27,251 bases of DNA from Catajapyx aquilonaris. Lineage: Eukaryota. Positions 811 to 27,153 of this stretch are shown here, one piece after another (within the stretch, counting starts at the first letter, position 1; every line of letters begins with the position of its first letter). The position numbers and the translations under genes are program-made. The notes under the pieces are model-generated. The model did no database searches, was not told the DNA's origin, and saw only the letters and a program-made list of their open reading frames with translations. The stretch spans positions 62,001-89,251 of the forward strand of contig KZ538268.1 in assembly GCA_000934665.2 (NCBI GenBank), read 5' to 3'.

Positions 811-1422
811 CCATGGAGCCCTTCAATTATTGTCTATGGGGAGGATTAATCTCTCTAAATCTGTGTTCAGCTAAATTCTGAGACAAGTGGTATGCCTTAC
901 ATCAGGATATTTTACCTGAGTTACTCTACACACTACAATTTATGTTAGAGTACTACTGTTCTTTTCACACATCTACAACTCTGGCGTCAAAGAGGCAAAA
1001 GTACATTCTGATTTGTTTGAAGTACATTACGGGGTTACTTCTTTGCCTCACACAAATTCTGTGGCAACATGAGACAGAGAACTCTTTGGTGTCCCCAGGG
1101 TCACGAGCATGTGATTTCACCCTCACTCATAGTAATTGCTTACTACAAAAGCAGCATACAGTGTATACCATAAAATGAGCTATTCACAGGTTTTAAATGA
1201 GCGACTGTACGTATACTGTATTCTACTTTGATAATAAGATTTTATCAAAATTAGAAAAATTCCTGCAGATTTTTAGTTTGTCTTCTGGAAAAAGTCTGTT
1301 ATATTTCTTTGCGAGAAACATTGATATTTTTTCAGACTTTCCTTTGTTTTAGTCATACACAGATAATAACCAGCACCCTGATAATCGGGATTACAGTTTA
1401 TTTATGAATAGCTGAGACTTAC

Positions 1423-4400
1423 TTGGCTGCAAGGACACTAGCTTGGTGAGATTATCCTCTGCCTTCATCCCAAGAGGCATGCAAGAGTCAGGCAATGCTG
1501 GTGCTCCAACCTTATATATCCTCACATCACTGAACCTGACATCGAATGAATGTGGGTAAAGTGGAGACCTAGCCCCTCCATAGAAGTATTCCCTGACCCG
1601 GCAATCCCTGGCTTCTGCCCTAGCTGTCTGGCTCCTCTCCACAACTCCACCACTCTTGGGGAGGAAGACCACTCTCACAAAATGAGGCATATCACGCCCC
1701 AGCTCATTGTACAAGCGCTCCTGGTCTAGAACCAGAATCACATCTATTTCAAATGCTTCTGCAACATGTGTCAGCTGGCGATAGCCCTCGCCTTTTACCC
1801 ATCCACATGTGTTGATGATCACACCAGAGGAGTGGGCTGTGAAAATTAAAACAATTCAAAAATAAAGAAATCTGCATGGTTAGACTGGTGGGGTGTAATT
1901 TATAAATACTCGCCTTTTCGGTTGGTTTGCATTCTCTCCTGCATGACTTCAGACAGCCTCGATACTAGTCGGTTGTACAGAGCCCCATTATGACCTGGTG
2001 TCTTGTGCCCGTAATGAAACACGAGAGGTGCCTGCTGGGAGAACCCTTCCTCTACAGAGGCAGGTCGCTCAACCAGCAATGCTCCAATAGCGCCTGGTAT
2101 GGAGATTGATCCCTGTCCCACATCCAGGTCAACATAGATGGGCCGGCGACCCACACGGACAGCATAGTTCAGCAGCATGCGGCAAAGGGTTGATTTGCCC
2201 ACATCTGTTGGGCCTACTATCAAACACTTTGGACCCCGGGCTAGAAAAAAATAGTAAATCATGATCATGCACATTATACAGAATTCAAAACAGTACAAAA
2301 AATGAAAATAAAGTAATAATTAGAATTACATAATATTGGCTGGGGTGGGGGATGGGACGGGTTGTTTATAGGTTTATTTTTACAAGTTTTAATTTAGTTA
2401 ATATTTTGGGTTAGCTTGTGGATCCCGTCATCGCTGACTACCCCTTATAGGGAAATGTCGTGATGGTGGTGGTGATGATGACGATGATGATGACATAATA
2501 TGGTGTAGCAATCATAACCTACTCTCATACATATTCTTTCTAAATTGCAAGACCAGGCAGTCCCCAACTTACTGTATATACTCGTAGATTGATTCAGACT
2601 TATGTAAAAAAAATCCAGCTGTTGCAAAAATTATGGAACAAACTGGTAACATATACTGTACTACAACGCTGGCAACTGCAAAAGAACATAATTATCCAAA
2701 TTATGGTGTGTGGCAGCATGAAGCTGCCTGCCTAGACTCATTCTTTCACTCATTTTACATGTGACAGAAATTTGTGACCAGATTCTGGGCCTTGTTGAGA
2801 ATCCCTTTCTGTTTCCAATGGCCTCAGTTAAATACAACACTGGTAAATGGTACAATTAAAATGTTCTGAGTTACCTAAAATTAGTCTGCACATAATGTTG
2901 CAGACAATCCACTTATGTACGTAAGTTGGGAACTGGCTGTACCAGTTATAAACAAGCAAATCTTACTTCCATCAGCTTCTGCCTTTTTTCTCATTTGTTC
3001 CAATACTGCATGGGTGTTAAGGTACATGATGACTGGTGTCTCCCTCGCAATGTAGGCCACCTCAGTGCGTCCTTTCAGCTCCAGTGCACATCCATGGTAG
3101 GTGTAGACAGCCACCTTGGCCCCCACACCAAAGTTGTACGACTTCCCCTTCACCAGTTCTGTTCCAAATATTTCTGCATGACCAGACTTCAGCTCCACCT
3201 GTAATACCATAAATTTATGCTCACCTCTCATATTGTCGTTAATATGACAAAAGGTCGAATTCGAAATTTTTGCTAAAATCGGATTACGGCCTCTGCCAGC
3301 ACCATCAAGTGTTTGGTCAAATTCTGACAAAATGGTGAACCCACGGAACAAATAGTGTCAGGGTTAGAACAGAAAATAAAAACACCACTCTATGTATTGC
3401 ATAGTGGTTTGCAGGTTTCTTAGGCTCTCCTGTACGATTATGTACATGTTGAATTTGTCCTTTTGTCAGATTAATGACGATATCTGCAATAATGGCTACA
3501 CATGTAGTGGTAAATGCGACGTTATAATTTCCTCACACTGCTCACTTCTATTGACGTGGATACATCCTTAAAATCGGATCAGGGGGCATGCAGGCAAACT
3601 CGAGCTTTACAGAAAAGCGTTACAGTCAGGGCCCCGCCAGGGGCCCCATGGTGGGGACATGCAGAGGGAGGGGGAGGGGGCAGCTGGGCAACGCTTTTCT
3701 GTAACGCTCGAGTTTGCCTGCATGCCCCCGCCATTATAGTCGAGAAATGTGAAACATAATGTACGTTGAGCCTGCAAAAGCTGTGACTTGTCCCCAACAC
3801 AACCTAATGTAATTTTTTATAGCAATAAAGTCATGCTGTACTTCCACAACTTTGATATGATTGCTGGTCATAAGTTTTTTCCATGACGAGCAGAAAATTG
3901 CATACTGTATATATTTTTTAAATTGCTACTAATTTAATTAAAATTCAGCCAGTTAAGTGTCTTCAAAGTGAGTTTGGCCATAAAGTATTTGTATAAAATA
4001 ATACGCCTCTACATGCAGGAAGATTTGCAACCATAAGCTGGGTATCCACGCCGGAGTTTCTCATGTCAGAATCCTCTTGCGCGAGAAATCTTATACATCA
4101 AGATGGATTCTCTGTCGCCTCAGGGCCCGCCTGGTCCCTCGGACGAGGGATTAAGTTGAAAATTTTCTACTTTTCCTCATTCCTTTAATCCGGGCAGTTG
4201 GCTTCTCTTGCAAGGGAAAACATTTACGTGGATATCCCGCTTTACCCAGGCCACATTACATGGTAAATTACTCTACAGCTGCCAAATCCTATGCTCCACC
4301 AAATGTCTGCATAGATTCATACCTCTCATATACATGGCTAATGTACACCTAAATTTACTTTTCCCCGTCAAATATGACATTTCTTCACCTCACCTGAACC

Positions 4401-4510: not shown

Positions 4511-4862
4511 TTACGTCCAACAAATAAGTAGCTCAAAATTTTCTCAAAAAGTCCAAAAAAAGAGCATCAAACGGTCGCCATGTTGGTTCAAGCCACTCCG
4601 TTCCTCGAGTTAGTTATCGGGCCGAATGGAGCACAGCGGCTTCTGCATAGCTGCTGCGCGTAGTCCACACCCTTGGCTGCTCTAGTGCTCTTGGCTGGCT
4701 GGATGCTCTTCATCGCGTACAATCTTCTGTTCTTTTTCTAGTTTCGAATTTCATCTCTCCTGCTGCGGAATTATTCGAGTACGCGCGACTAGGGGGGCTG
4801 GAGCGGCTGGAGGGACGGCGTCTGGACCATTGTTCGGCAGGCGACGAGAGGCAGACGAGCTG
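4511..4862. promoter_or_regulatory. Probable bidirectional promoter/5'UTRs shared by CLP1 and ARL6IP6
   Basis: The two start codons diverge with only 352 bp between them. The region is CpG-rich and has a YY1/Pho-type motif CGCCATGTT at 4576-4584. Confidence 0.65.
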
Positions 4863-6175
4863 ATGGAGGGGGGCACGGAGCTTTCCCGCCTGGACAAGGT
4901 GAAGAGGTACCTGAGGTTCTCGTCAGGTGAGGAGGATCATGAAGGACAACCAGCGGGAGAAGATGAGGGAAGGAGGAGGAGGAGGAGGGATGAAGACAAG
5001 CACCAGAGGAATGGGGAGTCTTGGTTTCCATTGTGGACCAGTGACAACGGCACAACGCAGGTGGATGAGGCGGAGGAGGAGGTAGAGGAGGAGGAAGAGG
5101 AGGTGGGAAGCGGGATGCTGGGACGACACTGCGACACCATCCTGCTGGTGCTGCTCTTTGCCTTTAGTGTCGTCATTGCCAAAGTCTACTATTACTACTG
5201 TGAGTATACTGTCAGTAGAGGCACATACACTGATTTAGCTAAGTGTAGGAATAGGCCACTGTCGTCGCTTGTAAGAAAGTCACTGTTATAATGACAACAA
5301 AGGTAATGTCATTACAAGCTATAAAAATTCAGAGTATGTGGCATGTGGAGATAATCTTGGCTATGTCACATGCAACAAATGATGGTCCGGATGTGATATG
5401 ATTTTTATTCAACCACAATAATATTGTGGTTGAATAAAAATCCTCCAATCACCAAACCTCCCCTGTAACCTTGGATAACATATTATGTTATCCAAGGTTA
5501 CAGGGGAGGTTTGGTCATTGCCAGAATAACTGTAGTATGTTTTAACAGTTTTAACCAGTCATGAAGGGGACTGCAATTATTATTAGTTATGGCAAGAGCT
5601 TGGTTATGGTAATGGTGAAAGATGTGGTCTTTTATAGGTAGTTAAAAATATTATTGGTATAGTGTCACTTGCTGTCTAACTTTGACAGCAGAAATAAGCA
5701 CAATGTTGCGCCCATTATGCCAATTGACTGATTCAACTTGTCATGTGCAGCCACCGAGGTACATGAGGCAGCTCACCAAGGAACTGTTTGGGCCACAACC
5801 CTGGTGACAAATGCCTCGATGCCTTCCTCAGCCACGGCCCGAGCCCTTGCTGCTTCCACTGTGGACTTGGCTCACTCTGTGGGATCAGCTGCTGGAGCTG
5901 CTGCTGCCAAGGTCTCATCCCAAGCGTCATGGTTTTGGCTGAAGGCTGGATGGCTGTTAGTGCCTGTGCTCTCTGGCCTTGCACTCACTGCATTCTCCTG
6001 GCTTATCCTGTACTTAGACAGTGCAGTCCCAGGTCAGCTCCCGCCCTCTCCATTCTCACCTCCCAGAATCCGGATAGGCTCAGGGTACACCTTCCACCTC
6101 AACTATGTGGCCACTGCATTCAATGGCATTGCGCTCTGCGCCGTTCTTCTTTGGGGAGAGTATGGTGCCCAGTAA
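4863..6175 (+). CDS. ARL6IP6: ADP-ribosylation factor-like 6 interacting protein 6 (multi-pass membrane protein), ~253 aa
   Basis: Exon 4863-5199 (T|GTGAGT, phase 1) joins exon 5751-6175 (tgcag|CC). The C-terminus FSWLILYLDSAVPGQLPPSPFSP..R..SGYTFHLNY...NGI matches the ARL6IP6 family signature YLDSxxPGxxPPxPxSP. Three hydrophobic segments. Confidence 0.88.
5400..5442. repeat. Palindrome, 21-bp arms, 1-nt spacer
   Basis: GATTTTTATTCAACCACAATA-A-TATTGTGGTTGAATAAAAATC. Confidence 0.95.
5451..5515. repeat. Palindrome, 32-bp arms, 1-nt spacer
   Basis: ACCAAACCTCCCCTGTAACCTTGGATAACATA-T-TATGTTATCCAAGGTTACAGGGGAGGTTTGGT. Confidence 0.95.
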
Positions 6176-8159: not shown

Positions 8160-8232
8160 TGCCTCCTGTGAGAGTCGAACTCACGACCCCTGGTTTACGA
8201 GACCAGTGCTCTAACCACTGAGCTAAGGAGGC
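8160..8232 (-). tRNA. tRNA-Thr(CGT)
   Basis: Reverse complement GCCTCCTTAGCTCAGTGGTTAGAGCACTGGTCT-CGT-AAACCAGGGGTCGTGAGTTCGACTCTCACAGGAGGCA forms a full cloverleaf with A/B boxes. T7 Pol III terminator at 8147-8153 (minus strand). Confidence 0.97.
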
Positions 8233-8606
8233 TTCACGTCAAATCCCGCTTCCAAAGACCATCCTTGAACTTGGATCCGATTGCCCTTCCCCTTCAACCC
8301 CGACCACGCACCTTCCCTCGAAGCACCTCCCTGCCCCCCCTGCAACCACTGCATCAACCTGCCCTTTGACCCTCTGCTGCCCTACATCAACCACGCAACC
8401 ACTCTGTCGATCTCCCGACCAAAGAGGTTGCCATTCCCGCCACCGTGTGGCGCCATACCCTCCACACAGTTATTCACACCATGCCAAGCTCCCCTGTTAA
8501 CGACCCAAGCTTGTTAATTCTAGTTAAATACGGCCCCGCTTCTTATTCCGGGCCTTATTCGTCCTATGCTCCCAAAAATTGAGGGACAAAATGTGAAAAA
8601 TAAGCG

Positions 8607-8680
8607 AGCCCCCTGTGAGATTCGAACTCACGACCCCTGGTTTACAAGACCAGTGCTCTAACCAACTGAGCTAAGGAGGC
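8607..8680 (-). tRNA. tRNA-Thr(TGT)
   Basis: Reverse complement GCCTCCTTAGCTCAGTTGGTTAGAGCACTGGTCT-TGT-AAACCAGGGGTCGTGAGTTCGAATCTCACAGGGGGCT forms a cloverleaf. T5 terminator at 8596-8600 (minus strand). Confidence 0.97.
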
Positions 8681-9369
8681 GTCCTCGTGCGAGCTGCTCT
8701 TCTATGCCTACTTGCCGGATCGAGGGGCGTAACATGGGCTGCAAGCCATGGAAGGCAAACGGCAGATGGCGGCCCTATTTGTATTCAGATCCCACCTGAA
8801 AGAGCGGCCAGAGAAAAAAAAATAAGGCGAAATATTGCCATTCATATCGCACCTCGCTCTATTGTCCAACCACCGGCATAGAGATGTTATCACACAGACC
8901 GCCAGTAATGGGAACCATTGTCAGGGAGAAAAATAACACATAAAGAAGCAATAGTGTGCGTGACTTGGCGATCTTCGAGTATGATTTCATTATTATCGGA
9001 GAGTTGGCACCATTTCGCTATTGCAAGGATTTAATGTACCGGAATAAACGTACAGTGATTACTTGTTAATAGGACCACATCTTTATGCTCGCGACACTGT
9101 GGACCAGATATGAATATTTGTGGAGTGTACATAATATTAGTGAAAGGCGGCAGACAGTGAAAAGTTTCTGAATTGTGGAGTTGGCGAGCGTATCGCTTCG
9201 GAACATCCGGATGGGAGGACCCCCAGGTATATGGCGGTCGAGGGCAGATGTCATCCGGATGCTGACGGCAGACAATGAGGGAAAAGCAGGCCGGAAGAGG
9301 AAAAAGGAATCATAGGATACACCTCGTCACAGGGAGGGATAAAATCGCAGTAGCAAAGGGGACATCGAC

Positions 9370-9571
9370 ATGGGAGCTAGGTCCAGCAGTATTATGGGGC
9401 GTCGAGAGGCGTCTTCAGCATCTCATCCGTCTTCATGGCCACCTTTGCCTGGATGCGGGTTGAAGTTCACGGTGGAACAGCTGAGGAGGCTGAATCTGAT
9501 ATTCGTCCAGCTGGATAGAGATAGCCAGAAGGGATGGAGCGACGCCCCCGACGCCCCGGATCAACAGCAAA
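9370..9571 (+). CDS. Probable first coding exon of the Mab-21-like gene (N-myristoylation motif MGARSS)
   Basis: ATG in gacATGG context, MGxxxS, helical segment EQLRRLNLIFVQLD, consensus donor A|GTGAGT at phase 1. That phase matches the phase-1 acceptor at 13252, giving ...DQQQ-K-RRANLELFARRIMRQVAARDPRF. The link across the 3.7-kb intron is inferred. Confidence 0.55.
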
Positions 9572-9675
9572 GTGAGTGGCGGAGATGTGCGGCTTTTGGT
9601 GCTGCCCGCCAAGTCGAGCGGGGATTTTCCTCTTTCCCTTACATGGTGCGCTCAGAAGGGGGAAGTTATTATCGG

Positions 9676-9748
9676 GCCCGGATAGCTCAGTCGGTAGAGC
9701 GTTAGGCTTTTAACCTAACGGTCCGGGGTTCAAGTCCCCGTTCGGGCG
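9676..9748 (+). tRNA. tRNA-Lys(TTT)
   Basis: GCCCGGATAGCTCAGTCGGTAGAGCGTTAGGCT-TTT-AACCTAACGGTCCGGGGTTCAAGTCCCCGTTCGGGCG; all stems pair. T7 terminator at 9756-9762. Confidence 0.97.
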
Positions 9749-11125
9749 GCTCCTCTTTTTTTCTAGTTTAATTAGGGAGCTGGCGTTTTGTAGGAGTTCA
9801 CTTACTAATTTTTTCGCACGTTGGATGCCGGCATGTTTTTATGGGAGGGTTTTCGTGTGGTGGTTATTGCAGTGTGTGGAGAGGAAGTTAAAATTGGGTG
9901 TCACGTACAGGCGTGAATTTTCAGTTGGCAGGGTCATGTAGGGCACACTTTTTTGGCTTTGTTTGCAACTCCCACCCCTGGCTGGGTGTACTACCTAGGT
10001 TACCCTCTGCCCCCTGTAATGACAGGGACAGCTGGTTGTTCAGTACTTTCTCCCCTGTTCCTGTATAGTGTATACCTTTGCACATACTGTATTTTTAAAG
10101 CATTTTTTAAGCAACTGCACGCAGAGATTTTCCTAACCTCTAATACTATTATTGAAAGCCATATTATGTCCGTACAGCCGCCGGATTAAAGCTACTTATT
10201 TCGACACGAGTATACACAGAATATATAATGAATAGTTTGTATTGTAAATGCCAGGTAAATCCAGTCTTTTACTGTAACACAAAAGAGAGCATTTCACTGC
10301 TGTGATGACAACATTATTTAGCCTACACGATATGAAAAGAAGATTTGCAATCATTATGAAAGCTGTAAATGGCCCGCAGGACAACGTAATTAATCACTTT
10401 AAGTGGGAGTTTTAATATCAACATGACTATTCGCAGCTATTCGCGCGTGATTTACTAGTTGCATTATCTACCGTTACTTGTTTTTGCATGAATGTTATAC
10501 TTGTATATCCAAAATGAACAGTAATAGTTATACACTGAACTTTAAGGCCTCATAAATAGACGCCAAAGCTCTAATTAAATATTAAAATGATTTTATTATC
10601 GTAAATGGCAGCGTTATACAATACATATTTTTAGAAACATAAATAGTTCACTACGGAAAGTATTCACGCTGCAGTTGATTACTTGAAACTACCTGTAGGT
10701 AACGGCTGCCGAGTGGGTGCAGGGGAAAGGCCTTGAAACTAATTACCTCACACGATTCACATTATACCATGTTCTATGCACGATTGTGGTGAGTGTGGTC
10801 CGAGGACTTATTCAGCTTGCACTGTAGAGTGTGTGTATGTATACAGTGCAACCACGATTACGCGGGCCCTTAATCATGAACTCTAATGTTGGTCTAGTGC
10901 CGAAGAAGAAAAAAACATTCCCATTTTTATCTATAGCAGTTGAATATAATTATATTATTGCATACTAGTAGGGCGCGCGACGGTAATAAATAGTATACCA
11001 CTGAAATGACGTTGCTGTAGGCCTACTTCTTTTTTAAAGAATATCCTGGAATTGGACGATTTGTACAATACGTATAATTGCCTCCTGTGTTACATAATAA
11101 TTGCCATTCGATGCAAAGCCAGAGG

Positions 11126-11203
<78 letters not shown>

Positions 11204-11217
11204 GCGACAACAATATC

Positions 11218-11250
<33 letters not shown>
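11126..11250 (+). repeat. Compound (AAT)n/(AAC)n microsatellite
   Basis: Directly visible. Confidence 0.95.
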
Positions 11251-11360
11251 AGCTCTCGAAACATAATCTTTGGTGGCTAGCAGTGCAGTGGCCTGCAGTG
11301 ATAAACTGCATCGGGGTTAATTAGTAATTATAGCAATACAATATTGTACATGACGTGATG

Positions 11361-11631
11361 AACCGAAGCAGGTTGGTGTAGGGGATAAGGAGCCCGCCTG
11401 CTAATCGGGAGGTCCTGGGTTCGAATCCCCGGGCCGGCGACCCTGACCATGGTTTTCTGTGGTTTTCCATGGTCCCCTCCAGGACAATTCCGGGGTCGTT
11501 TCAGTAAAAATTGGCCACAGCCGCTTCCTTCCTTCTCTATCCCTGGTCCCATCAAATGGTGGTAATCCACCCCCCTAAGGGAGCCTAAGGCTCTAGCACG
11601 GGGTGTGATAAATAAATATAAATAAATAAAA
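11361..11631 (+). mobile_element. Full-length tRNA-derived SINE (resembles insect Lm1/Talua-type central domain)
   Basis: A-box-like TGGTGTAGGGG, B box GGTTCGAATCC, central GGTTTTCTGTGGTTTTCC...CCAGGACAATTCCGGG...GGCCACAGCCGCTTCCTTCC, (TAAA)n tail. Perfect 13-bp TSD ACATGACGTGATG at 11348-11360 and 11632-11644. Confidence 0.9.
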
Positions 11632-13251
11632 ACATGACGTGATGCTACAACTTAAGCGCCCTTCCATTGTCTCCCTCTATAAACTATAATAAGGCAATAT
11701 AACCCATTTCGCACCATTAGGCTGTGTCGGGAGCTAGATGGTAATATTGTATACATAATTATGCATTATTCATGTTATTCATGTGTATACACTCCCGCTC
11801 TGTTATTCTACTGAGGGACTCTCAGTGCTCATGCAAGGACCACAGATAAGCGGTATAGTGCTGTCAAGTTGGACAGCGGCATCGTCCAGCGAAATTGGGG
11901 CCCTCTTGGACCAAGAGCTGCAGAAGTTTCAGGTTGGCGTATAGCTTCCAGCAGCCAAATCCCCTCCAGTATGGAATTCGTGCTCCTATCGGAAGAACTA
12001 ATTAACCAATTAAATTTACTACTGGCCTTCCGCAAGGAGAGCCAATGAGCCATATTCCTACCTCGATTCTAAGGGTGTTCAGCAGGGTGTCAACTTCGCC
12101 CTCGGACAGGAGGAGTAACTTGGGTTCCGTTTAGCACATGCCGACGATGTTAACTGATAATTCCCCTGCATCATAATACGTATGAATATCCTAAACGATT
12201 ATTTTGACGGAAACTATAAACATCTCTAAAACTATAAATATCTGATGATGATGATGATGATGATGATAATTAATAAATAAACTCCTGTGTATGACCCGGC
12301 ATCATAAATAAATTATAGTTGGGCAAACTTACAGATGCATAAAGCAAAGATTTTCCTCTCTGGTTCCGATCAATTATTCAAATGCTCTCTTTCCGCAAAA
12401 TTCAAAACCAATGGAATTAATTATAATGTTGATTCCCATGGGTCATCATGATAAACCAATGTAACACTAACAAGTAAGTAACATGTGTTTTATGAAGTGG
12501 GCAAAACATGGGGTGACCCCCATTATTTCGCGACAGCTTATACACAGTAGCTACAAAGCCATCAGTAAGTTATATAGGCCTGTACCTAGTTACAAACCTA
12601 CTCAGTAATAATTATGAAAGGAATCATTGTTACTTGATGACTGATATGCTTATCTCGTGTCGGGGTTGTGCTTCTGGGCTTGCTTCTTTGACAGGAATTT
12701 GAGAACTTAATCAAGATCCATTGAGTCTGTCACAGCGCAACCTGTTGCTGTTGCTGAACTTCTTACATGACTGTAATATTGTCGCATTATCCTGCTTAAC
12801 TTCGTGACAGTCTGAGATTACACGCGACGTGAGTTCGCGCCTAACGAACTGCTATATTTATTTTGCTGTAGCACAGCAGGATGGTATTCACGCTGTGGTG
12901 GATCCTAGCATACTCTACAGTCTACAGTACATAGGAATCAGGTACGTTTCGGGAAAATGCGATTTACGAAGGTCACTTCCGCTTTAGTCCCATGGTAATG
13001 AAATGTGCTACGACCTGATTAGCACCGAGAGCAGGCCGACTCGAGTTCTTCAGCTATTTCATTAGTACGTACTGTAGAGCACAAGTAACACGGTCCTAAG
13101 ACTCCGTGAAACTAACGACTCACAGAGTTTGAAAAATACTGTGCAGGGATTTCAGCACTTTACCTACGTTACAAGTGAAAATAAGTCGATAAGCAGCCAG
13201 CCATTAGCGAAACTATATAGTTCACTGATTCTATTTCGTTTATATTGTTAG

Positions 13252-16200
13252 AACGAAGAGCTAATCTGGAGCTCTTTGCACGTCGGATTATGCGACAGGT
13301 GGCCGCAAGAGACCCCCGATTTAGTTGCCGATGGCTAATGTCCACCGAATCACCTTGCGAAGACACTCAGGTAAGTCGCACAAAAACCTTCTGACCGCAT
13401 TAAGTAACGCAATGTGATTCAGGTTGGCGAGGATGAAGAACTGGAGCTAGTGGTTCGTCTGGACCAGTTGTCGTCGCCGGTAACCTGGGGCGAAGAAATC
13501 CCAGGTTGCCGCTTGGTGGACGGGGATGACCTCCCGGAGGAAGACGATTCACCATACGACGCCCTTGACGGCGGACGAGATGCCAACTGGCCTCCAGGTC
13601 ATGTACAGCTGAGGGCACAGGGTCCTGCAATGGAGTCATTTGCCGAGTACATATGCCCAAGAGGATTCATCTGCTCGGATTTGCTCCTGGATGCTTTTTA
13701 CCATTTAGTTTCACAAGTGGTGCAGGAGCACATGCAAGGCGGTGGCCATCATAGCGACGAGTCAGATTCCAAGCCTCCTTATGTCATGGACGCTGATGTC
13801 CTGCAAGAGATTACAGCGGAGGTGCCCACCGAAGAACACCTCCTCCTTGTTGGTTAGTCATATTTTGTGGGGTCAAATCAGCAGGCTGTGTCTAATCGTT
13901 CTAAAATACAGAGACAGGAAGTGCGGACCAAACTGACTTTACGGATTGGTCAGTTGAGGTTATTGAGGAGGTCAGTGCAGTCAAGATACGGATAGTCAGC
14001 CCTGACGCGACTCGGAGGTCAACATTTAGGTTTCTACTCGGTGTGGCAATGGAAGGATGGCCGCGGCAATGCGACTTCCCTCAAAGAGTACCGCTGGGCC
14101 ATCTCGACGCTCTTCCTTTTCACCACTCGGCTTTACTGGTACAGGTTGCATTCAGCAATGCGCAGGTTACTATCTAATAATGCATTGCATTGCCAGGGAT
14201 TTTACTGCATACCGGGTGGCGAAGAGAGTGCTTCTGGTGTCGGCTCCTGGCGCTTGTATTTCCCTGCATCTCGGTCGTCACTGTTGGCTCACTATGGACC
14301 CGAAAGCGCTGTGGCGACGACGTTGAGGACACTTAGGGTGGTGGTGGCCCAACTGGGTGACGCGTCACATCCGCTCTGGCGCAGTGGGTGCGTCGGAGAT
14401 GACGCCAAACGTCTTCCTCCGTCACTGGCGTCTCGTTTCAAAGTACTGACTCGTGACGCTCTCGATGCAGCTTTTTTGTTTGCTTTGGAGAATTCTCCTG
14501 ATGCTCCCGGTCACTCGGACCATCCTGGTAATCACTTTAGTAATGATATTAAAATTTTAACAAATAAGACCTAAAAATTGTTATACACGCAGGTGAAGAG
14601 TGGGACAATGCCATGGACGCAACCGACGCTTGGCGTCTGGAAAGGATGTCAGCTCGCGTGTTAGGAGTGTTGGACCTCCTGATGGTTGCCCTTCTCAAGC
14701 GTCAACTTCGAAGTTTCTTTGTACCTGGAATGAACGTGCTGGCTGGGCGTCGTGGCACCACTGACGAAGACTATGACGCCGACGCCTCAGTTCTGCGCCA
14801 TTACATGAAAGCACTGCATGAGCTGTCCTATTACCCTTCAGCAGCGTCGGGCCAATCGGACCTCAATTCTTCAGGTGGCATTATTTTTCTTTGAAAGTTA
14901 TACCTTAATACTCGGAACTAATTTCTTTATAGGGTCACCCGAAGACGACTGGGTGAAAGAACTCTGCTTGCGAGAAAGTCTGGAAAAGATGCTTCTGGAG
15001 CAATGGCGTGTTGTACAACGATCACTATTGAGGACACGGCGTCCGCTGACATCAGCAACGTCGGTGGCGTCGGATCCGGCCGCTCGTTTGCAATTGGAAT
15101 ATGTCACCCAAGTAATGGATAGCGTCCTGCGGGTCAAGCAAGCCGTGAGGTTGTCGTCTGAGGGAATAATTCTGCCAACTTGCGGCGGCTCCAGAGTCGT
15201 CGCTGACGTTCTTGGCGTCGTTCTGGCGCAGTTGGGCGTCGCTGCTACCAGAACCAACATGAAAAATTACCACCCACGCAGCACACGCATCATAGCCCAG
15301 GCTTTGTTACATGTACGTGCCCGTTTTATGCATGCATAATAGTTTTTTGCCAATTCAGGCCATTTATTTTTCAGGAAGCGGAAGCCAATTGCCGGTCATC
15401 CGTGACACGGGTCGAGGACCTTTTTCCAGCACGGACTGTTATAGGGTGGTTATCGGCTGCCACGAGGACAAGGCCATTCGGGGCATGGGCACATCACTAT
15501 CTGAGAATGATGTGCTACAGTGCAGCTGCAAATGCATGCTTCCTGCAGGTCAGCGGCAGTGGTCTCAGCGTTTTTCCACAGTTTTGCTGACGGGGGATTT
15601 TTTTTTCTTGGTCCTGACAGGAATATCGAAAGCGTAACAGTGGATCTGAAGTAGGAGCTGCCAGAAGTTTGGCCCGATTCTTGTCATCTGAGAAGGAAGC
15701 GGACTTCCGATGCGCTCAAGAAGCGCTGTCGGATGCGGCTGCTAAAGGATGGGGATGGGCACAAGCCACGCTGCAAACACCGGCACGTCTGGACGGCACC
15801 TTCGTTCTGGTTGTGGAGCCGATGATGAACCACGTGCTGGCCTTTAACCTCTTGCCAACCTCTACTGCAACGATGACCCTGACAAAGACCAGTTCAACCA
15901 TATCTGCATTGTTGCGTCAGGATCACCGTGATCTTGGTAAGGCTGGCTGGCATGCAAATCTACAGATCTCTATCCCTTGTGTGATTTCAGTTAGCCACAC
16001 ATGATATATCATGTAGGCCATGAAGTTGTACGTGACTAAAATTGTACTACTTTTTATTTATAAATGAGATTTCCTGTAACACGATTCTTCTGTTCGTGCG
16101 ACAAACCTTTGCTAATTTGGGAGATAGTAGTGCAATGGCCAACTGGTCAAGTAAGCTGGATCTAATCCTAGTGGAGACCAAATATTAGCGATGAAAAATT

Positions 16201-17128
16201 AAACAAAAGTATATGGACAGTGCAGGTAACTGCACCCGAGGAGAAACTAGCTGATTACTTTTAACTTTTTAGATACATTAAAATATAGTAGTTTTCCTAT
16301 AGTGTGGTTACCTCCTAAAATATCAGGCACACGTGACTGCTGATCGTTGTTAATTTTTATCAGACATTGAGAATTTATAGCGGTAGGCTACGCCATTTGC
16401 GTCAGTAATTTTTCTCAACCGTTACCCGTTTCCCCAAGTAGGTCCCCTATTAATTAGTCGAACTCTTGGACAGAAACACTGGAGCTGGTTTTACGAGGGC
16501 TTCCATTGGATCGCAACGTAAGCTGCAAAAGACGCGCTAAGCTGCTGGAAGGATGTCCTCTGGCGGCGTCGGTGGCGTCTCGACGGCGTCAGGGATATCA
16601 GAGGGGACTAGGAAGCATCGTCGGAGCGCTAGTGACACTAAGGAGCTTTGGCTCTCTTCGACAAGTTGCAACCGTGCTCCCTGAGAAACGTGCTCAGGAA
16701 GCTCTAGCCGCCATCCAGAGGCTGTCCAGAGGCAGCGAGCGCAGTCTGGCCCGATCACGTCGAATGCGCGCCTCCGATGCAACTCAATTCAGGTCAGTCA
16801 GTGAGACACAATCAATATGTGTGGCTACAAATTTGTTAGAAAATTGAATCTCAATGACAGTTGAGGGCAAAACGCTATTTCTAATGGATGTTTCTGACCG
16901 TTTAGAGATGGGCAAGTGGCTACATTCAGGAGGCGAAACCACCAGCAGTACGCCTCCTTCCGGGATGACACCAACGATGCCCTGGAAACATCCGGAGCAC
17001 GTCCACTTAATGCCAAAGTGCGCAGAGCCAAAAGTTTACACAACCTTTTCCGCCGGTCAGCCGCCGGATATCAAGTTAATCGCTTCACTGATGCGTCCGA
17101 CCCTGTAGACAACGTCACCAGGCTCTGA
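13252..17128 (+). CDS. Mab-21 / cGAS-like nucleotidyltransferase-fold protein with long C-terminal extension
   Basis: Exons 13252-13370, 13423-13852, 13912-14138 (or -14144), 14197-14527, 14593-14874, 14933-15312, 15375-15548, 15621-15936, 16474-16792 and 16906-17128; all GT-AG and phase-compatible. Mab-21 landmarks appear in order: IMRQVAARDPRF, VGEDEELELVVRLDQL, PPGHVQLR, FAEYICPRGFICSDLLLDAFYHLV, VKIRI, MEGWP, GFYCIP, WRLYFP, W..ERMSARVLGVLDLLMVALLKRQLRSFFVPGMNVL. With exon 9370-9571 the CDS is 3003 nt (1000 aa). Confidence 0.85.
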
Positions 17129-17399
17129 CACGTGAAAACAGGGCAGGATGGTTTATTCAGTAGCTTTCTCGCACCGGTGTGTACCTAACCCCCCTTCTAT
17201 ATACACAGTCACGTAGGTCGATTCGTATTTAATGAACAAGTGCATGATTGTTGAGCCCCCTAGTAATTTAGCAACCATAATGTGATTTTATCGAGTGTGA
17301 TTCTTCAAAGTGCCGGTTGACATGGACAGCCTAGTTTGCGGCCGAATTCACTCACACCTTTAATGAAGTGCTGCTCTGTGAACAACACGATTGTGTGCA

Positions 17400-17720
17400 A
17401 ATAGGCCAATTAGAGGCTTCCCCCCCACAGCATCTCCCCCCTGGTGAATGAATTGAACAGTAGAGATTGGCTGGAACGTGCGATTAGGGCGACAAGTGTG
17501 GGATGAATCGACACGTTCATTCCACATAATCCCATGTATGTGACCAATCGTATCTAGTAGTTTAAAAGCTGTTTCATGGGGCTCATCTCTCCGGCCTTGA
17601 CCCGGACTATCGGAAAGGACGATTTGACAACGATGCAAGTCGGAGAGATAAGGCGAGGGTCAGACGTGCAATCGTCTCCGCTTCACATTTCTCGACGGGT
17701 GCTCCAGAAGGAAGAAGACA
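17400..17720 (+). promoter_or_regulatory. Putative promoter of the methyltransferase gene (clustered CCAAT boxes)
   Basis: CCAAT 17406-17410, ATTGG 17466-17470 and CCAAT 17544-17548 lie within ~320 bp upstream of the ATG at 17721. Confidence 0.35.
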
Positions 17721-19577
17721 ATGCCGGACGATCGGAAGGATATGGAAGCTATCTTGGAGAAGCGGGAGGAGCAATGTTTACACAAGGACTTGACCAAGAG
17801 CCAAGTGCAGGAGGGATACGACAACTGGGCCAAAGAATACGATCAAGTAAGTTTTATTTGAGTTGGTCCAGTTTGTAGCAGTGTCAGGGTGGAGGGTGAC
17901 ACAGTGGCCGAGCAGTGGTGGTTATGTCACTCGTCAGGAAGATTCGCTTGTGGTATATTCACAAAGTCGCTAAATTTTTTTTACAAGCCTCGATAAGCGC
18001 CTTGAGATATATGGCGAATGATATTCTAAGCTGATTTGTGAAAAAGGACTGTTGTGTGAACAGGTATTGTACGGCATGCTTTTTCATTTGGCATGTGAGG
18101 GGGTGAAATGCAGAGAGAAACCCAACCGTAGGACATCTGACCGAAAGAATATTGGAAAAGGAGAAAATGGTTCATTACGCTTACCATAATCTGCTTCACT
18201 TTCAACTGATTTTATTTGTTGTATTATCTTCTCAGATAATCTACTGAACTCACCATTCGATTATGCAATGACGATTGCATGACCCCAAAGTACTTGTACT
18301 TATCATTTTGTTGTAGATTTTGTCATCATTTCACCCCTTTAAAGAAAATTGTCCGTGCATAAAAGATGGAAGCATTGTGATCAAGATAATTATGCTGTCC
18401 GCACCGAGCGTTTCATTGCCCATGCAGAAGTTAACTCTCCTTAACTTCTCCCCCCATGGCAAGTGCACCATTCTGTACAGGGCTCTTGTATTGTACGTAC
18501 TTTATAGTCCCTGTATGGTCGTTCAAGAACAGGCTGTTTACTCCAATTTCCCAGTGGAACTTTGTAAATCGCCATTGTAACTAGCGAAGCCCTCTTTGTT
18601 GATTGATTAAAACGATAAGTTACCATGCTGTTGACGACCGAACTTCCGATTCAAGATTCCGAATAGTTTGTATCAATCATTCTGCCGCATTTGGGAAGCA
18701 ATGTTCCTGACGCAATGCACTTGTAGCGATCCACATCCAGCATTTGTTACTAGTGTCCTTCCTAATTTATTTACAGGAAATGGCGAACAACAAGCTCTAC
18801 ATGGCACCGGTTGAAGCTGCCCGCGCAATAGCCCAAGTTTTCCCGGAATCCCAAAGGCCCGCAGTCCGCATTCTAGACGTCGCCTGTGGTACCGGGGTCA
18901 TCGGAGTCGAGGTCTGACACATCCACAATAAGCCCCTAGCCTCATGAAACACGTACTTGCACAGACCCTACTTAACTCACATTACTTTCACACTGTAAAA
19001 CGTGCCGATTGACATTTCAGTTGCACAAACTCGGATTTCGTCGCATACACGGAGTGGATCCCAACTGGAAGATGGTATCAGAGCTGCTGCCTAAATGCGT
19101 GTACCGGCAGGTCATACTGGCCACAGTGGGAGAAACCAACAGCCCGGATGATGCCTCTAATGGAGACATTCTGGACGAGTACTACGACGGCGTGGTTCTG
19201 GCCGGAGGATTTACGCACGGCCATGTGCCATACACCGCCGTTTACGATATGCTCAGGGCGTGCAAGAAAGGCTAGTTTACTGCATTTAAACACTTCCTAC
19301 ACCGAAATTAAAGTACTAATACGTATAATTACTACTAACTATACAAGTGTCGTATAGGCATTTCTGGTAGATGAAACAAATGCTGATTGTTTCAGGAGGC
19401 GTGGTGGTGATAAGTATGCGTCCAGTGGTCCTGACTGAACACGAGGACTACCTGCCCTTGGGTCCCTTGATGGAGAGGCTGGAGAAGGAAGGCAAGTGGA
19501 AGCTGGAGAGGAAGCACGAATTTGAAAACTACTGGCGCTCGGATTCCGGTGTGGCGCTGACCTACCGCAAGTGCTGA
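17721..19577 (+). CDS. METTL27: Methyltransferase-like protein 27 (WBSCR27 family) class I SAM-dependent methyltransferase, ~230 aa
   Basis: Exons 17721-17846 (..GYDNWAKEYDQ), 18777-18911 (YMAP..., ILDVACGTG motif I), 19021-19270 (LHKLGF..IHGVDP..M, YDGVVLAGGFTHGHVP, R.CKK) and 19396-19577 (GGVVVISMR ... LEKEGKW ... GVALTYRKC*). Intron 3 is GC-AG. AATAAA at 19659-19664. Confidence 0.88.
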
Positions 19578-25295: not shown

Positions 25296-25323
25296 TAATA
25301 CTATTATCTAGTCGAGGGTCAGG

Positions 25324-26577
25324 ATGGAGGCGGTGGGCGGCGCCAACAACAGCAGCACGTCGCTGGAGACGATGGTCACCGGCGACGTGACGGCCACGGA
25401 AGCAGGCGTCGAAGGTCAGACCGACGATGGGAGCGAGGGCATGACCTCCACGTCGTTGCTGCTGCTCTCCTTCGGCGCCACGGTGGTTCCCTTGGCCTGC
25501 GCCGCCGCCGCCTTCCTGGTCATTCGACGCTGTTGGACCAAGTTTCGGCAGGGCTACAGGGGCGACCTTCAGCGGCGGAGTAGCAGTGGACAGCAGGCCC
25601 CGGGACCAACGTCGGGGACGTCGCAAACCTCACCTTCCGAGACACCCAATCTCAGACTGGTCGACGATGGCGGAGGAGGACCCATCTCTCCCAGGTACAC
25701 GACACGCAGCATCACGCAGCTGTGGCTTATAAGTAACAACGATCTTCCTTTCCCCCAAGCACGGTGGACGTTGTGCCGACACTGTCGGCCAGCGTGGGAA
25801 CGACGAGCGTCTCCAAAGTTGGTATGGGCCATCAAATGGTGGCCAATCACAACAGCAGCTGTAAAAGAGGACCAGACGGCTCCCTTATTACACTGACCCT
25901 AGAAAATAATCACCTAATAGTCGAGACCGAAGAACCGAACCCTATCCTGTACGCGGACGCCGACGTCAGCGACGTTCCTGACGTGGCCACTTCTTCCGAG
26001 CTCCTTCAGTCATCAGAAGGAGGAGACTCTCATTCTCCACAAGGCAACGATGCTGCAGAGTAAGTCATCTTTCTCATGACTTTGTATAGGGGACGTATAG
26101 GAAGTGACCTTTGGTGACCTGTTTCAGAAGTGGAGGCGAGCGAGACGACGGACAATCTGAACGGGTCAGCACCATAGCGAGGTGCAATACTGGACTGTCA
26201 CAGTCGGACGCCAGCTTATGTTCAACCGAAGGCACCTCTTCCAACCCCAGCTACCAGTACGGCAACCAGCTGGGTTACCTCTCCGGATATTTCGGGTACC
26301 CGCATCAGCTGGGATACGCGCCTTGGATCAGCGGCTACCCGGCCCCGGGGCCGCCCTCTCAACAGGTCCAGGGTCCCCCGCTTCCAACCCTCCCTTCCTT
26401 CACTCCTCAACATCCTCTCCCGGTGCCCATGCTGGCCACCACTCCCACAGAACCATGCCAAACCAGCCCTCCTCCAGACACGCAACCCGCTGGGGGTTCC
26501 AACCCGAATAATGAAAGTGGAGAATCCAATCCGGTGCCCAGTGCGTTGTACGTCCCGGGGCACTCCAGGACCACCAG
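25324..26577 (+). CDS. Uncharacterized single-pass (type III-like) membrane protein; 3' end uncertain
   Basis: Exons 25324-25694 (N-glycosylation sequons NNS/NSS, TM LLLLSFGATVVPLACAAAAFLVI followed by RR), 25760-26059 (KRGPDGSLITLTLENNHLIVETEE) and 26128-26577 (NTGLSQSD..., SYQYGNQLGY, Pro-rich). All junctions are GT-AG phase 2. In-frame TAG at 25309 upstream of the ATG. The end is either a terminal exon such as 27052-27067 (..RVFQV*) or read-on to 26809. Confidence 0.7.
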
Positions 26578-27153
26578 GTCAGACTATTTTCTGCTTTATC
26601 GTATTCTCAAGTACACTACAGTCGGAGTCAGCAATAGTTGTACTATGAACCGCACAAAGAATGTCCGCAAGATTCTTCGTTCATCCTGGCGGCCAAGCAA
26701 TCCATTGCACAGGTGTGTACACACACACGTGTGTGTACGTCCGTGCTTATCTGCTGGTTTTTTTTCCTCCTCCCTTATCTACCCTTCTCGAGCTTATCTG
26801 TCTTTGTAACCGAGCTATCTCAAAAGTGCAAGGCAATGTGTGTCCAGAAATTAAAGTATATGATATTATGCATAAAAAAATGCTATTTATTTTGCTGCTA
26901 CTGGTAGATTATACTGATTTATTCCGATCACATGCCCGTGTTAAGTTCAGAGCAGATAATTATGTGCCTGTGGATCAGACCAAACTGACTGTCAGTATTC
27001 ATAAACATATCTAAAGCGAAGAAAATGATATTTAAAGCCAATCATATTCAGGGTGTTCCAAGTGTGAAGGATGCCGTTTAATAGGGAATGTCGCTGGAAA
27101 CTATCTTGTATCTGTGTATCTTGCGTCCTGATCCAGACGGGTTCAAGCGGAAT

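Follow-up and report, generated by a model that had tools for sequence, protein, structure and literature searches.

A putative ten-exon Mab-21-like gene of Catajapyx aquilonaris with an apparently incomplete nucleotidyltransferase site and a long basic tail

Can a gene that resembles the cGAS/Mab-21 superfamily of cGAS-like receptors (cGLRs) still be expected to make a cyclic-nucleotide signal when its active site appears incomplete, and if not, what might its product do? A locus in the genome of Catajapyx aquilonaris (GenBank assembly GCA_000934665.2, contig KZ538268.1, positions 62,001 to 89,251 of the forward strand) raises this question. We call this 27,251-nucleotide stretch the window and give all positions in its numbering. 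An earlier note on the same DNA had proposed that positions 13252–14874 encode a degenerate Mab-21 or cGAS-like protein, and had ranked it as the best candidate for undescribed biology in the window. We found that the locus is an intact, spliced, multi-exon animal gene, putative in that its splicing is predicted, with a product of about 934 to 1002 residues. Its first half appears to be a highly divergent protein of the cGAS/Mab-21 superfamily, with a C-terminal lobe recognized by computation and an N-terminal lobe whose fold is suggested by motif order.

Gene structure, Mab-21 likeness and active site

Ten exons could be read from the sequence between 13252 and 17128 on the plus strand (B to K in Table 1), with canonical GT-AG borders and consistent phases, and the model stays open until its TGA stop codon with no earlier in-frame stop. 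The introns measure, in order, 52, 59, 52, 65, 58, 62, 72, 537, and 113 bases. The peptides quoted in the earlier note were found on the plus strand at the places given, under open reading frames (ORFs) at 13221–13394, 13408–13857, and 13905–14177, and the splice joins it had assumed proved canonical and consistent in phase. The span it gave covers only about half of the gene, the first five of the ten exons, and coding sequence upstream is needed as well. Exons had a guanine–cytosine (GC) content of 0.53–0.58, compared to 0.23–0.50 for introns. Mononucleotide shuffles were free of stops in 3–52 of 2000 trials for exons C–G, I, and J (3 each for exons C and G) and in 133–364 for exons B, H, and K, which are short, the highest count belonging to the 39-codon exon B. 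Synonymous-codon use in exons B–F correlated with that in exons G–K at 0.325 in frame, compared to 0.085 and 0.164 out of frame. Contigs of a DNA run (X1), which is possibly the window's own source, showed zero differences over 12282–17200, and a run whose kind is not on record (X5) supplied a single 161-base contig on 17012–17172, again with no differences.

We scanned 104 stop-to-stop ORFs of at least 70 residues from the window and 18 exon pieces or slices against Pfam, about 122 pieces together, and Mab-21_C (PF20266) was the only family over its curated cutoff in the gene. The match lies on exon F (E-value 3.5e-5, 24.3 bits against a cutoff of 24.1), spans profile positions 45–89 of 102, and repeats in the ORF scan and in a slice (24.6 bits); by piece, it was found in one of seven exon pieces and none of five further pieces. 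About 0.004 matches would be expected by chance at this E-value over the pieces scanned. Numbered on the 1002-residue model, which includes a speculative first exon, the protein contains a series of landmarks comprising Asp-Pro-Arg-Phe at 88, Thr-Glu-Ser at 99, Glu-Leu-Glu-Leu at 113, Ile-Pro-Gly-Cys at 133 and a long helix after it, Val-Lys-Ile-Arg-Ile-Val at 274, Phe-Arg-Phe at 289, Gly-Trp-Pro at 299, Trp-Arg-Leu-Tyr-Phe at 346, and Phe-Phe-Val-Pro at 480. Their order is, we presume, that of human MAB21L1 and cGAS. Single-sequence AlphaFold2 (AF2) models, too uncertain for a fold search, gave exon C a strand at residues 6–12 and a helix at 86–105 at a predicted local distance difference test score (pLDDT) of 40.4, and exon G an all-helical structure at 47.6, and co-folding of exon pieces C, E, and F with exon D returned interaction prediction scores from aligned errors (ipSAE) of 0.00 and 0.00.

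Active cGLRs are described, in the available portion of a survey of the family, by the motif h[QT]GS X8-20 [DE]h[DE]h X50-90 h[DE]h (PMC9980059). A regular-expression search of the spliced protein returned no full match to it, and the only match to [QT]-x-S X8-20 [DE]h[DE]h paired Thr-Glu-Ser at 99–101 with Glu-Leu-Glu-Leu at 113–116. The activation loop departs from h[QT]GS in that its Ser is kept and its Gly has become Glu, the change from GS to ES that the earlier note had reported. The [DE]h[DE]h element is present 11 residues after that Ser, so the replacement of EFD by ELE, which the note had counted as degenerate, still satisfies [DE]h[DE]. The third acid, h[DE]h, is lost as the note had claimed: Phe-Arg-Phe occupies the strand before Gly-Trp-Pro, and no Asp or Glu was found in residues 283–297, the 15 residues before Glu-Gly-Trp-Pro. 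This position lies 172 residues on, compared to 50–90 in the motif (PMC9980059, available portion), because two acidic inserts add length; the spacing held to be conserved is therefore kept between the first two elements and not to the third. A site degenerate as a whole, with its positions placed by eye, was thus supported. By the reasoning applied to MAB21L1 in the available portion of its structure paper (PMC4897736), the Glu in the activation loop and the Arg/Phe at the second-metal position make synthesis of a nucleotide signal unlikely. The protein lacks two of the three hallmarks, and a cyclic-nucleotide signal is most likely not among its products.

The two halves of the protein differ in charge, with a net −31 in the Mab-21 region and +27 in the C-terminal tail, whose 469 residues include 57 Arg and 13 Lys compared to 43 acids. 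Residues 226–270 carry 7–9 acidic and no basic residues per 30-residue window, which confirmed the acidic insert described previously. We saw no transmembrane segment in the protein (the best 19-residue hydropathy, 1.62 at 621, falls inside the tail), and self-comparison revealed no internal repeats. cGAS binds nucleic acid through basic surfaces, and the acidic cage here speaks against binding of the cGAS kind by the Mab-21 domain itself. We consider the odds somewhat better than even that the product is a non-enzymatic scaffold or ligand-binding module with a basic helical tail for partner binding or autoinhibition. Under this proposal, a nucleotidyltransferase cage of two lobes would carry two acidic inserts in its loops, and its site would retain the Ser of the Gly-Ser loop and Glu-x-Glu, with Glu in place of the Gly and Phe-Arg-Phe in place of the third metal-binding acid. 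Docking or sensing may then fall to the acidic Mab-21 cage, and partner binding or electrostatic autoinhibition to the basic helical tail, which is about 470 residues long.

Competing explanations

Several points weigh against a Mab-21 scaffold. The Mab-21_C match exceeds its cutoff by only 0.2 bits, and PF03281, the Mab-21 nucleotidyltransferase family, had no match at E-values up to 10 on single exons and slices, covered one exon at a time as seven exon pieces and six slices (five from exons C–E). A phmmer search of the PDB with exons B–F returned two matches, both unrelated and with E-values above 1, and no cGAS, MAB21L1, or other Mab-21-family chain at E-values up to 10; MAB21L1 is held there as entry 5EOM, according to the available text of a shrimp study (PMC12928593). 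The N-terminal nucleotidyltransferase half is without computed support and is assigned by eye on motif order, the catalytic positions are likewise placed by eye, and a second string in the acidic insert, Gly-Gly ... Asp-Ala-Asp-Val at 213–233, matches the first two elements of the motif as well. For the predicted gene, we found no splice joints over 9300–17200 in runs X5 and X1, of which X5 covered only the repeat at 11150–11675 and 17012–17172. The scaffold role itself is an analogy. Superfamily membership, as first proposed, was therefore upheld in part: the Mab-21 profile or structural match on which the earlier note had made its proposal depend was obtained as a profile match on the C-terminal lobe, with PF03281 and the cGAS and MAB21L1 chains of the PDB unmatched.

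True relatives were also absent from the word-based searches with exons C, D, and F and from the HMMER search with exon E, a further point on that side. These searches used single exons of 77–143 residues as queries. Word-based searches yielded 187 candidates among longer proteins for exon F (none at E 1e-3 or better), 70 among longer proteins for exon D (none at E 10 or better), and 19 of near length for exon C (none at E 1 or better). An exhaustive HMMER search with exon E against 1.84 billion representatives gave three matches at E 1e-3 or better, which we rejected as artefacts, as they were tandem-repeat proteins with 5–8 matched stretches and no Mab-21 in Pfam. Among metagenome loci, exon F had 407 pattern matches, none of them confirmed; in the ESM Atlas, exon C had a best score of 0.79 with no family and exon E, compared to named clusters only, had no usable match; and PADLOC matched none of eight exon pieces. 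Given the single-exon queries, this result shows strong divergence from catalogued proteins and is not proof of an orphan gene.

Much of this evidence would also fit a protein in which only the C-terminal bundle is Mab-21-like, or in which the Pfam match arose by chance, with an unrelated, lineage-specific N-terminal half whose motif order is coincidental. The score is narrow, the match extends over no more than 45 residues in a Leu-rich helical stretch, no exon or slice matches PF03281, and neither the Atlas result nor the low pLDDT of exon C (40) points to a family. We nevertheless consider this explanation unlikely, since so few chance matches are expected over the pieces scanned, the match sits where the C lobe belongs relative to nine ordered landmarks of what we take to be the family arrangement, and exons of 39–143 residues make short queries when a family is divergent.

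The second half of the model could instead be wrong, with the protein ending soon after exon F at about 540 residues and exons G–K belonging to a different transcription unit or an alternative isoform. In most Mab-21 proteins the chain stops shortly after the C lobe, about 540 residues would be a size typical of the family, and readthrough past 14874 reaches a stop at 14892–14894, six codons past the exon F donor (ORF 14568–14894), and no splice joint was seen in runs X5 and X1. Yet exons F and G lie 58 bases apart, with a GT donor, a pyrimidine-rich AG acceptor, and matching phase; the frames of exons G–K are open, rich in GC, and similar in codon bias to exons B–F; and a separate gene would have neither an in-frame start nor room for a promoter. 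In shrimp, a Mab21 protein of 1042 residues is known (PMC12928593, available text). The shorter protein thus has a low probability, and we retain the long model.

A still-active nucleotidyltransferase with a non-canonical site is less probable again. Such an enzyme would borrow an acid, or its true site would be the Gln-Gly-Gly ... Asp-Ala-Asp-Val string. Glu-Leu-Glu and the loop Ser are retained; residues 213–233 fit G[SG] X8-20 [DE]h[DE]h, and about 56 residues separate them from the strand that precedes Gly-Trp-Pro, inside X50-90; and in the available portion of the MAB21L1 structure paper, its authors left residual activity with a non-acidic third residue possible (PMC4897736). The strand before Gly-Trp-Pro (283–297) is, however, devoid of Asp and Glu under either placement, and the full motif has no match. 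The string at 213–233 directly follows the long helix with no strand ahead of it, in a run of 7–9 acids per 30 residues where such strings arise easily, and [DE]h[DE]h occurs six times in the protein; we therefore read it as a chance match within the second acidic insert. Arg at a metal site repels Mg2+, and the Arg of Phe-Arg-Phe would be expected to do the same.

At the far end of what may be imagined, the protein could be a lineage-restricted, membrane-tethered, N-myristoylated pseudo-cGLR, in which Arg stands in for the metal-B aspartate and permits metal-free binding of nucleotides or cyclic dinucleotides, so that it would serve as a receptor, sponge, or switchable adaptor whose basic tail, once freed from the acidic cage by ligand binding, would recruit an IKK-epsilon/TBK1-type kinase; we regard this as a long shot. 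An unexpressed, decaying gene copy is the most improbable explanation of all, as the lack of relatives and of any listed RNA run would fit it, but the reading frame runs unbroken and free of stops through about 934 codons in ten exons, with all splice sites intact.

The 5' end and the surrounding sequence

Exon B starts at a phase-1 acceptor, and coding sequence upstream of it must exist because its ATG at 13290 leaves only about 10 residues before Asp-Pro-Arg-Phe. A protein start at this ATG was accordingly rejected, as 10 residues are too few for the spine helix depicted in the available portion of the MAB21L1 structure paper (PMC4897736). The sole coding-like candidate upstream of 13252 is an ORF segment whose first ATG, at 9370, opens a product starting Met-Gly-Ala-Arg-Ser-Ser-Ser (Table 1). 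Its GC content is 0.567, compared to 0.411 for the 3680 bases down to 13251; its phase fits exon B, which has a one-in-three chance of occurring at random; and no Pfam family was found in it. Joining it to exon B is a guess on our part, and would give a protein of 1002 residues, compared to 934 from the 13252 acceptor without it. Met-Gly-x-x-x-Ser is what we take to be an N-myristoylation-like start, so that N-myristoylation of the product is possible by way of this speculative exon.

The sequence between this candidate and exon B (9572–13251) is AT-rich and contains a tRNA-Lys gene, microsatellites, and a high-copy repeat. The tRNA-Lys gene belongs to a small tRNA cluster and begins about 100 bases past the putative first-exon donor, and would thus fall in the first intron. 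The repeat is dispersed, of very high copy number, and has many variant positions, with a summed contig depth of 61,000–173,000 in DNA run X1 compared to about 35 on its flanks; its start looks tRNA-like by eye, although ARAGORN and Rfam call no tRNA in it. The long trinucleotide microsatellites were skipped as repeats in read mapping. Closer to exon B, an ATG-led frame of 17 codons is followed by a strong donor. We rejected it as a coding first exon, since its only ATG frame stops after those 17 codons, but the Mab-21 gene could use it as an alternative, non-coding first exon that carries an upstream ORF. Elsewhere in the window we detected several further genes or open frames, among them CLP1, an ARL6IP6 ORF, and a gene downstream on the same strand that resembles a small class I methyltransferase.

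Table 1. Coordinates of the predicted exons and of neighbouring features in the window (1 is its first letter)
Feature	Position	Strand	Content
Putative first coding exon (speculative)	9370–9571	+	Phase-1 end at gtgagt donor
Exon B	13252–13370	+	Acceptor ttgttag, donor CAG/gtaagt; ORF open from 13221; presumed end of spine helix, Asp-Pro-Arg-Phe, Thr-Glu-Ser (13344–13352) replacing [QT]-Gly-Ser loop
Exon C	13423–13852	+	Glu-Leu-Glu-Leu strand (13438–13449), Ile-Pro-Gly-Cys, long helix; acidic inserts, first about 13519–13599, second beginning about 13747
Exon D	13912–14144	+	End of acidic insert, two presumed strands, Phe-Arg-Phe (14025–14033), Gly-Trp-Pro (14055–14063)
Exon E	14197–14527	+	Trp-Arg-Leu-Tyr-Phe segment, linker, presumed start of C-terminal lobe
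Exon F	14593–14874	+	C-terminal helical lobe; Pfam Mab-21_C match at 14619–14753
Exon G	14933–15312	+	C-terminal extension begins; acceptor tttatag, phase agrees with exon F
Exon H	15375–15548	+	Part of C-terminal extension; no Pfam family
Exon I	15621–15936	+	Part of C-terminal extension; no Pfam family
Exon J	16474–16792	+	C-terminal extension, Arg-rich; no Pfam family
Exon K	16906–17128	+	Basic tail and TGA stop (17126–17128)
Possible non-coding alternative first exon	12881–12941	+	ATG-led 17-codon frame; donor CAG/gtacgt at 12941/12942
High-copy dispersed repeat	about 11360–11600
Trinucleotide microsatellites	11117–11259 and 12236–12281		AAT/AAC runs, GAT runs
tRNA-Thr(CGT)	8160–8232	−
tRNA-Thr(TGT)	8606–8680	−
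tRNA-Lys(TTT)	9676–9748	+
CLP1 (polyribonucleotide 5'-hydroxyl-kinase)	1394–3357	−	Multi-exon; Pfam CLP1_N, CLP1_P, Clp1
Acidic, Arg-rich ORF	4686–5288		Ahead of the ARL6IP6 ORF; may be its first exon
ARL6IP6 ORF	5732–6172	+	Pfam ARL6IP6, E 3e-16
Next gene downstream, methyltransferase-like	about 17700–19272	+	Weak Pfam matches to Methyltransf_25 (E 0.003) and Methyltransf_11
Long open frames	25312–26806	+	Pro-, Ser-, Thr-, and Gly-rich; GC reaching 0.57; no Pfam family

Comparison with known systems

MAB21L1 and MAB21L2 are about 360 residues long. They are also exceptionally conserved, and the available portion of the structure paper reports for MAB21L1 that E73 and E75 are retained, that the third position is Q169, and that no activity was seen (PMC4897736). 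Our predicted protein is like MAB21L1 in keeping two of the three catalytic carboxylates (Glu-Leu-Glu in place of E73/E75) with the third replaced, and in that no Zn thumb is described for MAB21L1 in the available text or seen here. It differs in having Arg, within Phe-Arg-Phe, where MAB21L1 has Q169, and from both MAB21L1 and MAB21L2 in its two acidic inserts, its tail of about 470 residues, and the absence of any PDB sequence match to them for exons B–F. The gene is not a MAB21L1/2 ortholog as judged from its predicted sequence, which agrees with the claim that it is no canonical member of that pair. With active cGLRs and cGAS, it shares the presumed fold, the motif order, the loop Ser, the [DE]h[DE]h strand, and the 11-residue spacing; it differs from the published motif (PMC9980059, available portion) in the change of Gly to Glu, the missing third acid, and the 172-residue spacing. 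Unlike cGAS, its domain is strongly acidic, at net −31.

Other members of the superfamily have also taken up roles apart from cyclic GMP-AMP (cGAMP) synthesis. MiD51 binds adenosine diphosphate without catalysis, and MiD49/MiD51, ITPRIP, TMEM102, and MB21D2 bear N-terminal membrane anchors or signal sequences. The available part of a review lists these among the cGLR-superfamily paralogs, together with MAB21L1–4 (PMC10732462). Compared by description only, the present protein resembles MiD49/MiD51, ITPRIP, TMEM102, and MB21D2 in an apparent re-use of the Mab-21 fold for non-cGAMP roles, and differs from them in that no transmembrane segment was seen.

The gene thus probably joins a known non-enzymatic branch of the cGAS/Mab-21 family. 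Because MAB21L1 has lost its third acid and shrimp Mab21 proteins signal without cGAMP, a pseudo-cGLR is an already known kind of protein, and the suggestion of undescribed biology was overstated in view of the two-acid site of MAB21L1 (PMC4897736) and the cGAMP-independent shrimp proteins (PMC12928593), as given in the available text of both studies. What appears novel is the acidic Mab-21 region, a helical tail of basic charge and about 470 residues, and the absence of detectable relatives. Keyword searches of the open-access literature returned no description of a Mab-21 protein of such architecture, and nothing relevant on Mab21 in connection with myristoylation, pseudoenzymes, or C-terminal extensions. 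Relatives of cGAS are numerous in animal genomes, and those with incomplete sites are mostly uncharacterised; in the available portion of one survey, relatives were catalogued and screened only where the active site was complete (PMC9980059). The work on MAB21L1 and shrimp Mab21 indicates that incomplete-site members can signal without making nucleotides. The gene described here would be a very divergent example, whose build is unusual in joining an acidic cage to a long basic tail and in placing Arg at a metal position. At present, it is a gene-annotation result and not a new kind of system; if expressed, it could shed light on the re-use of the cGAS fold as a scaffold.

We suggest that the nearest functional precedent, by analogy, is found in the Mab21 proteins of shrimp. 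According to the available text of that study, LvMab21-1, LvMab21-2, and LvMab21-3 bind neither double-stranded DNA nor double-stranded RNA and produce no cGAMP; they activate IKK-epsilon through direct protein–protein contact (PMC12928593). Compared by description only, LvMab21-1 is of similar length, at 1042 residues compared to about 1000 here, with its Mab21 domain placed internally at 373–716, whereas that of the Catajapyx protein would be N-terminal.

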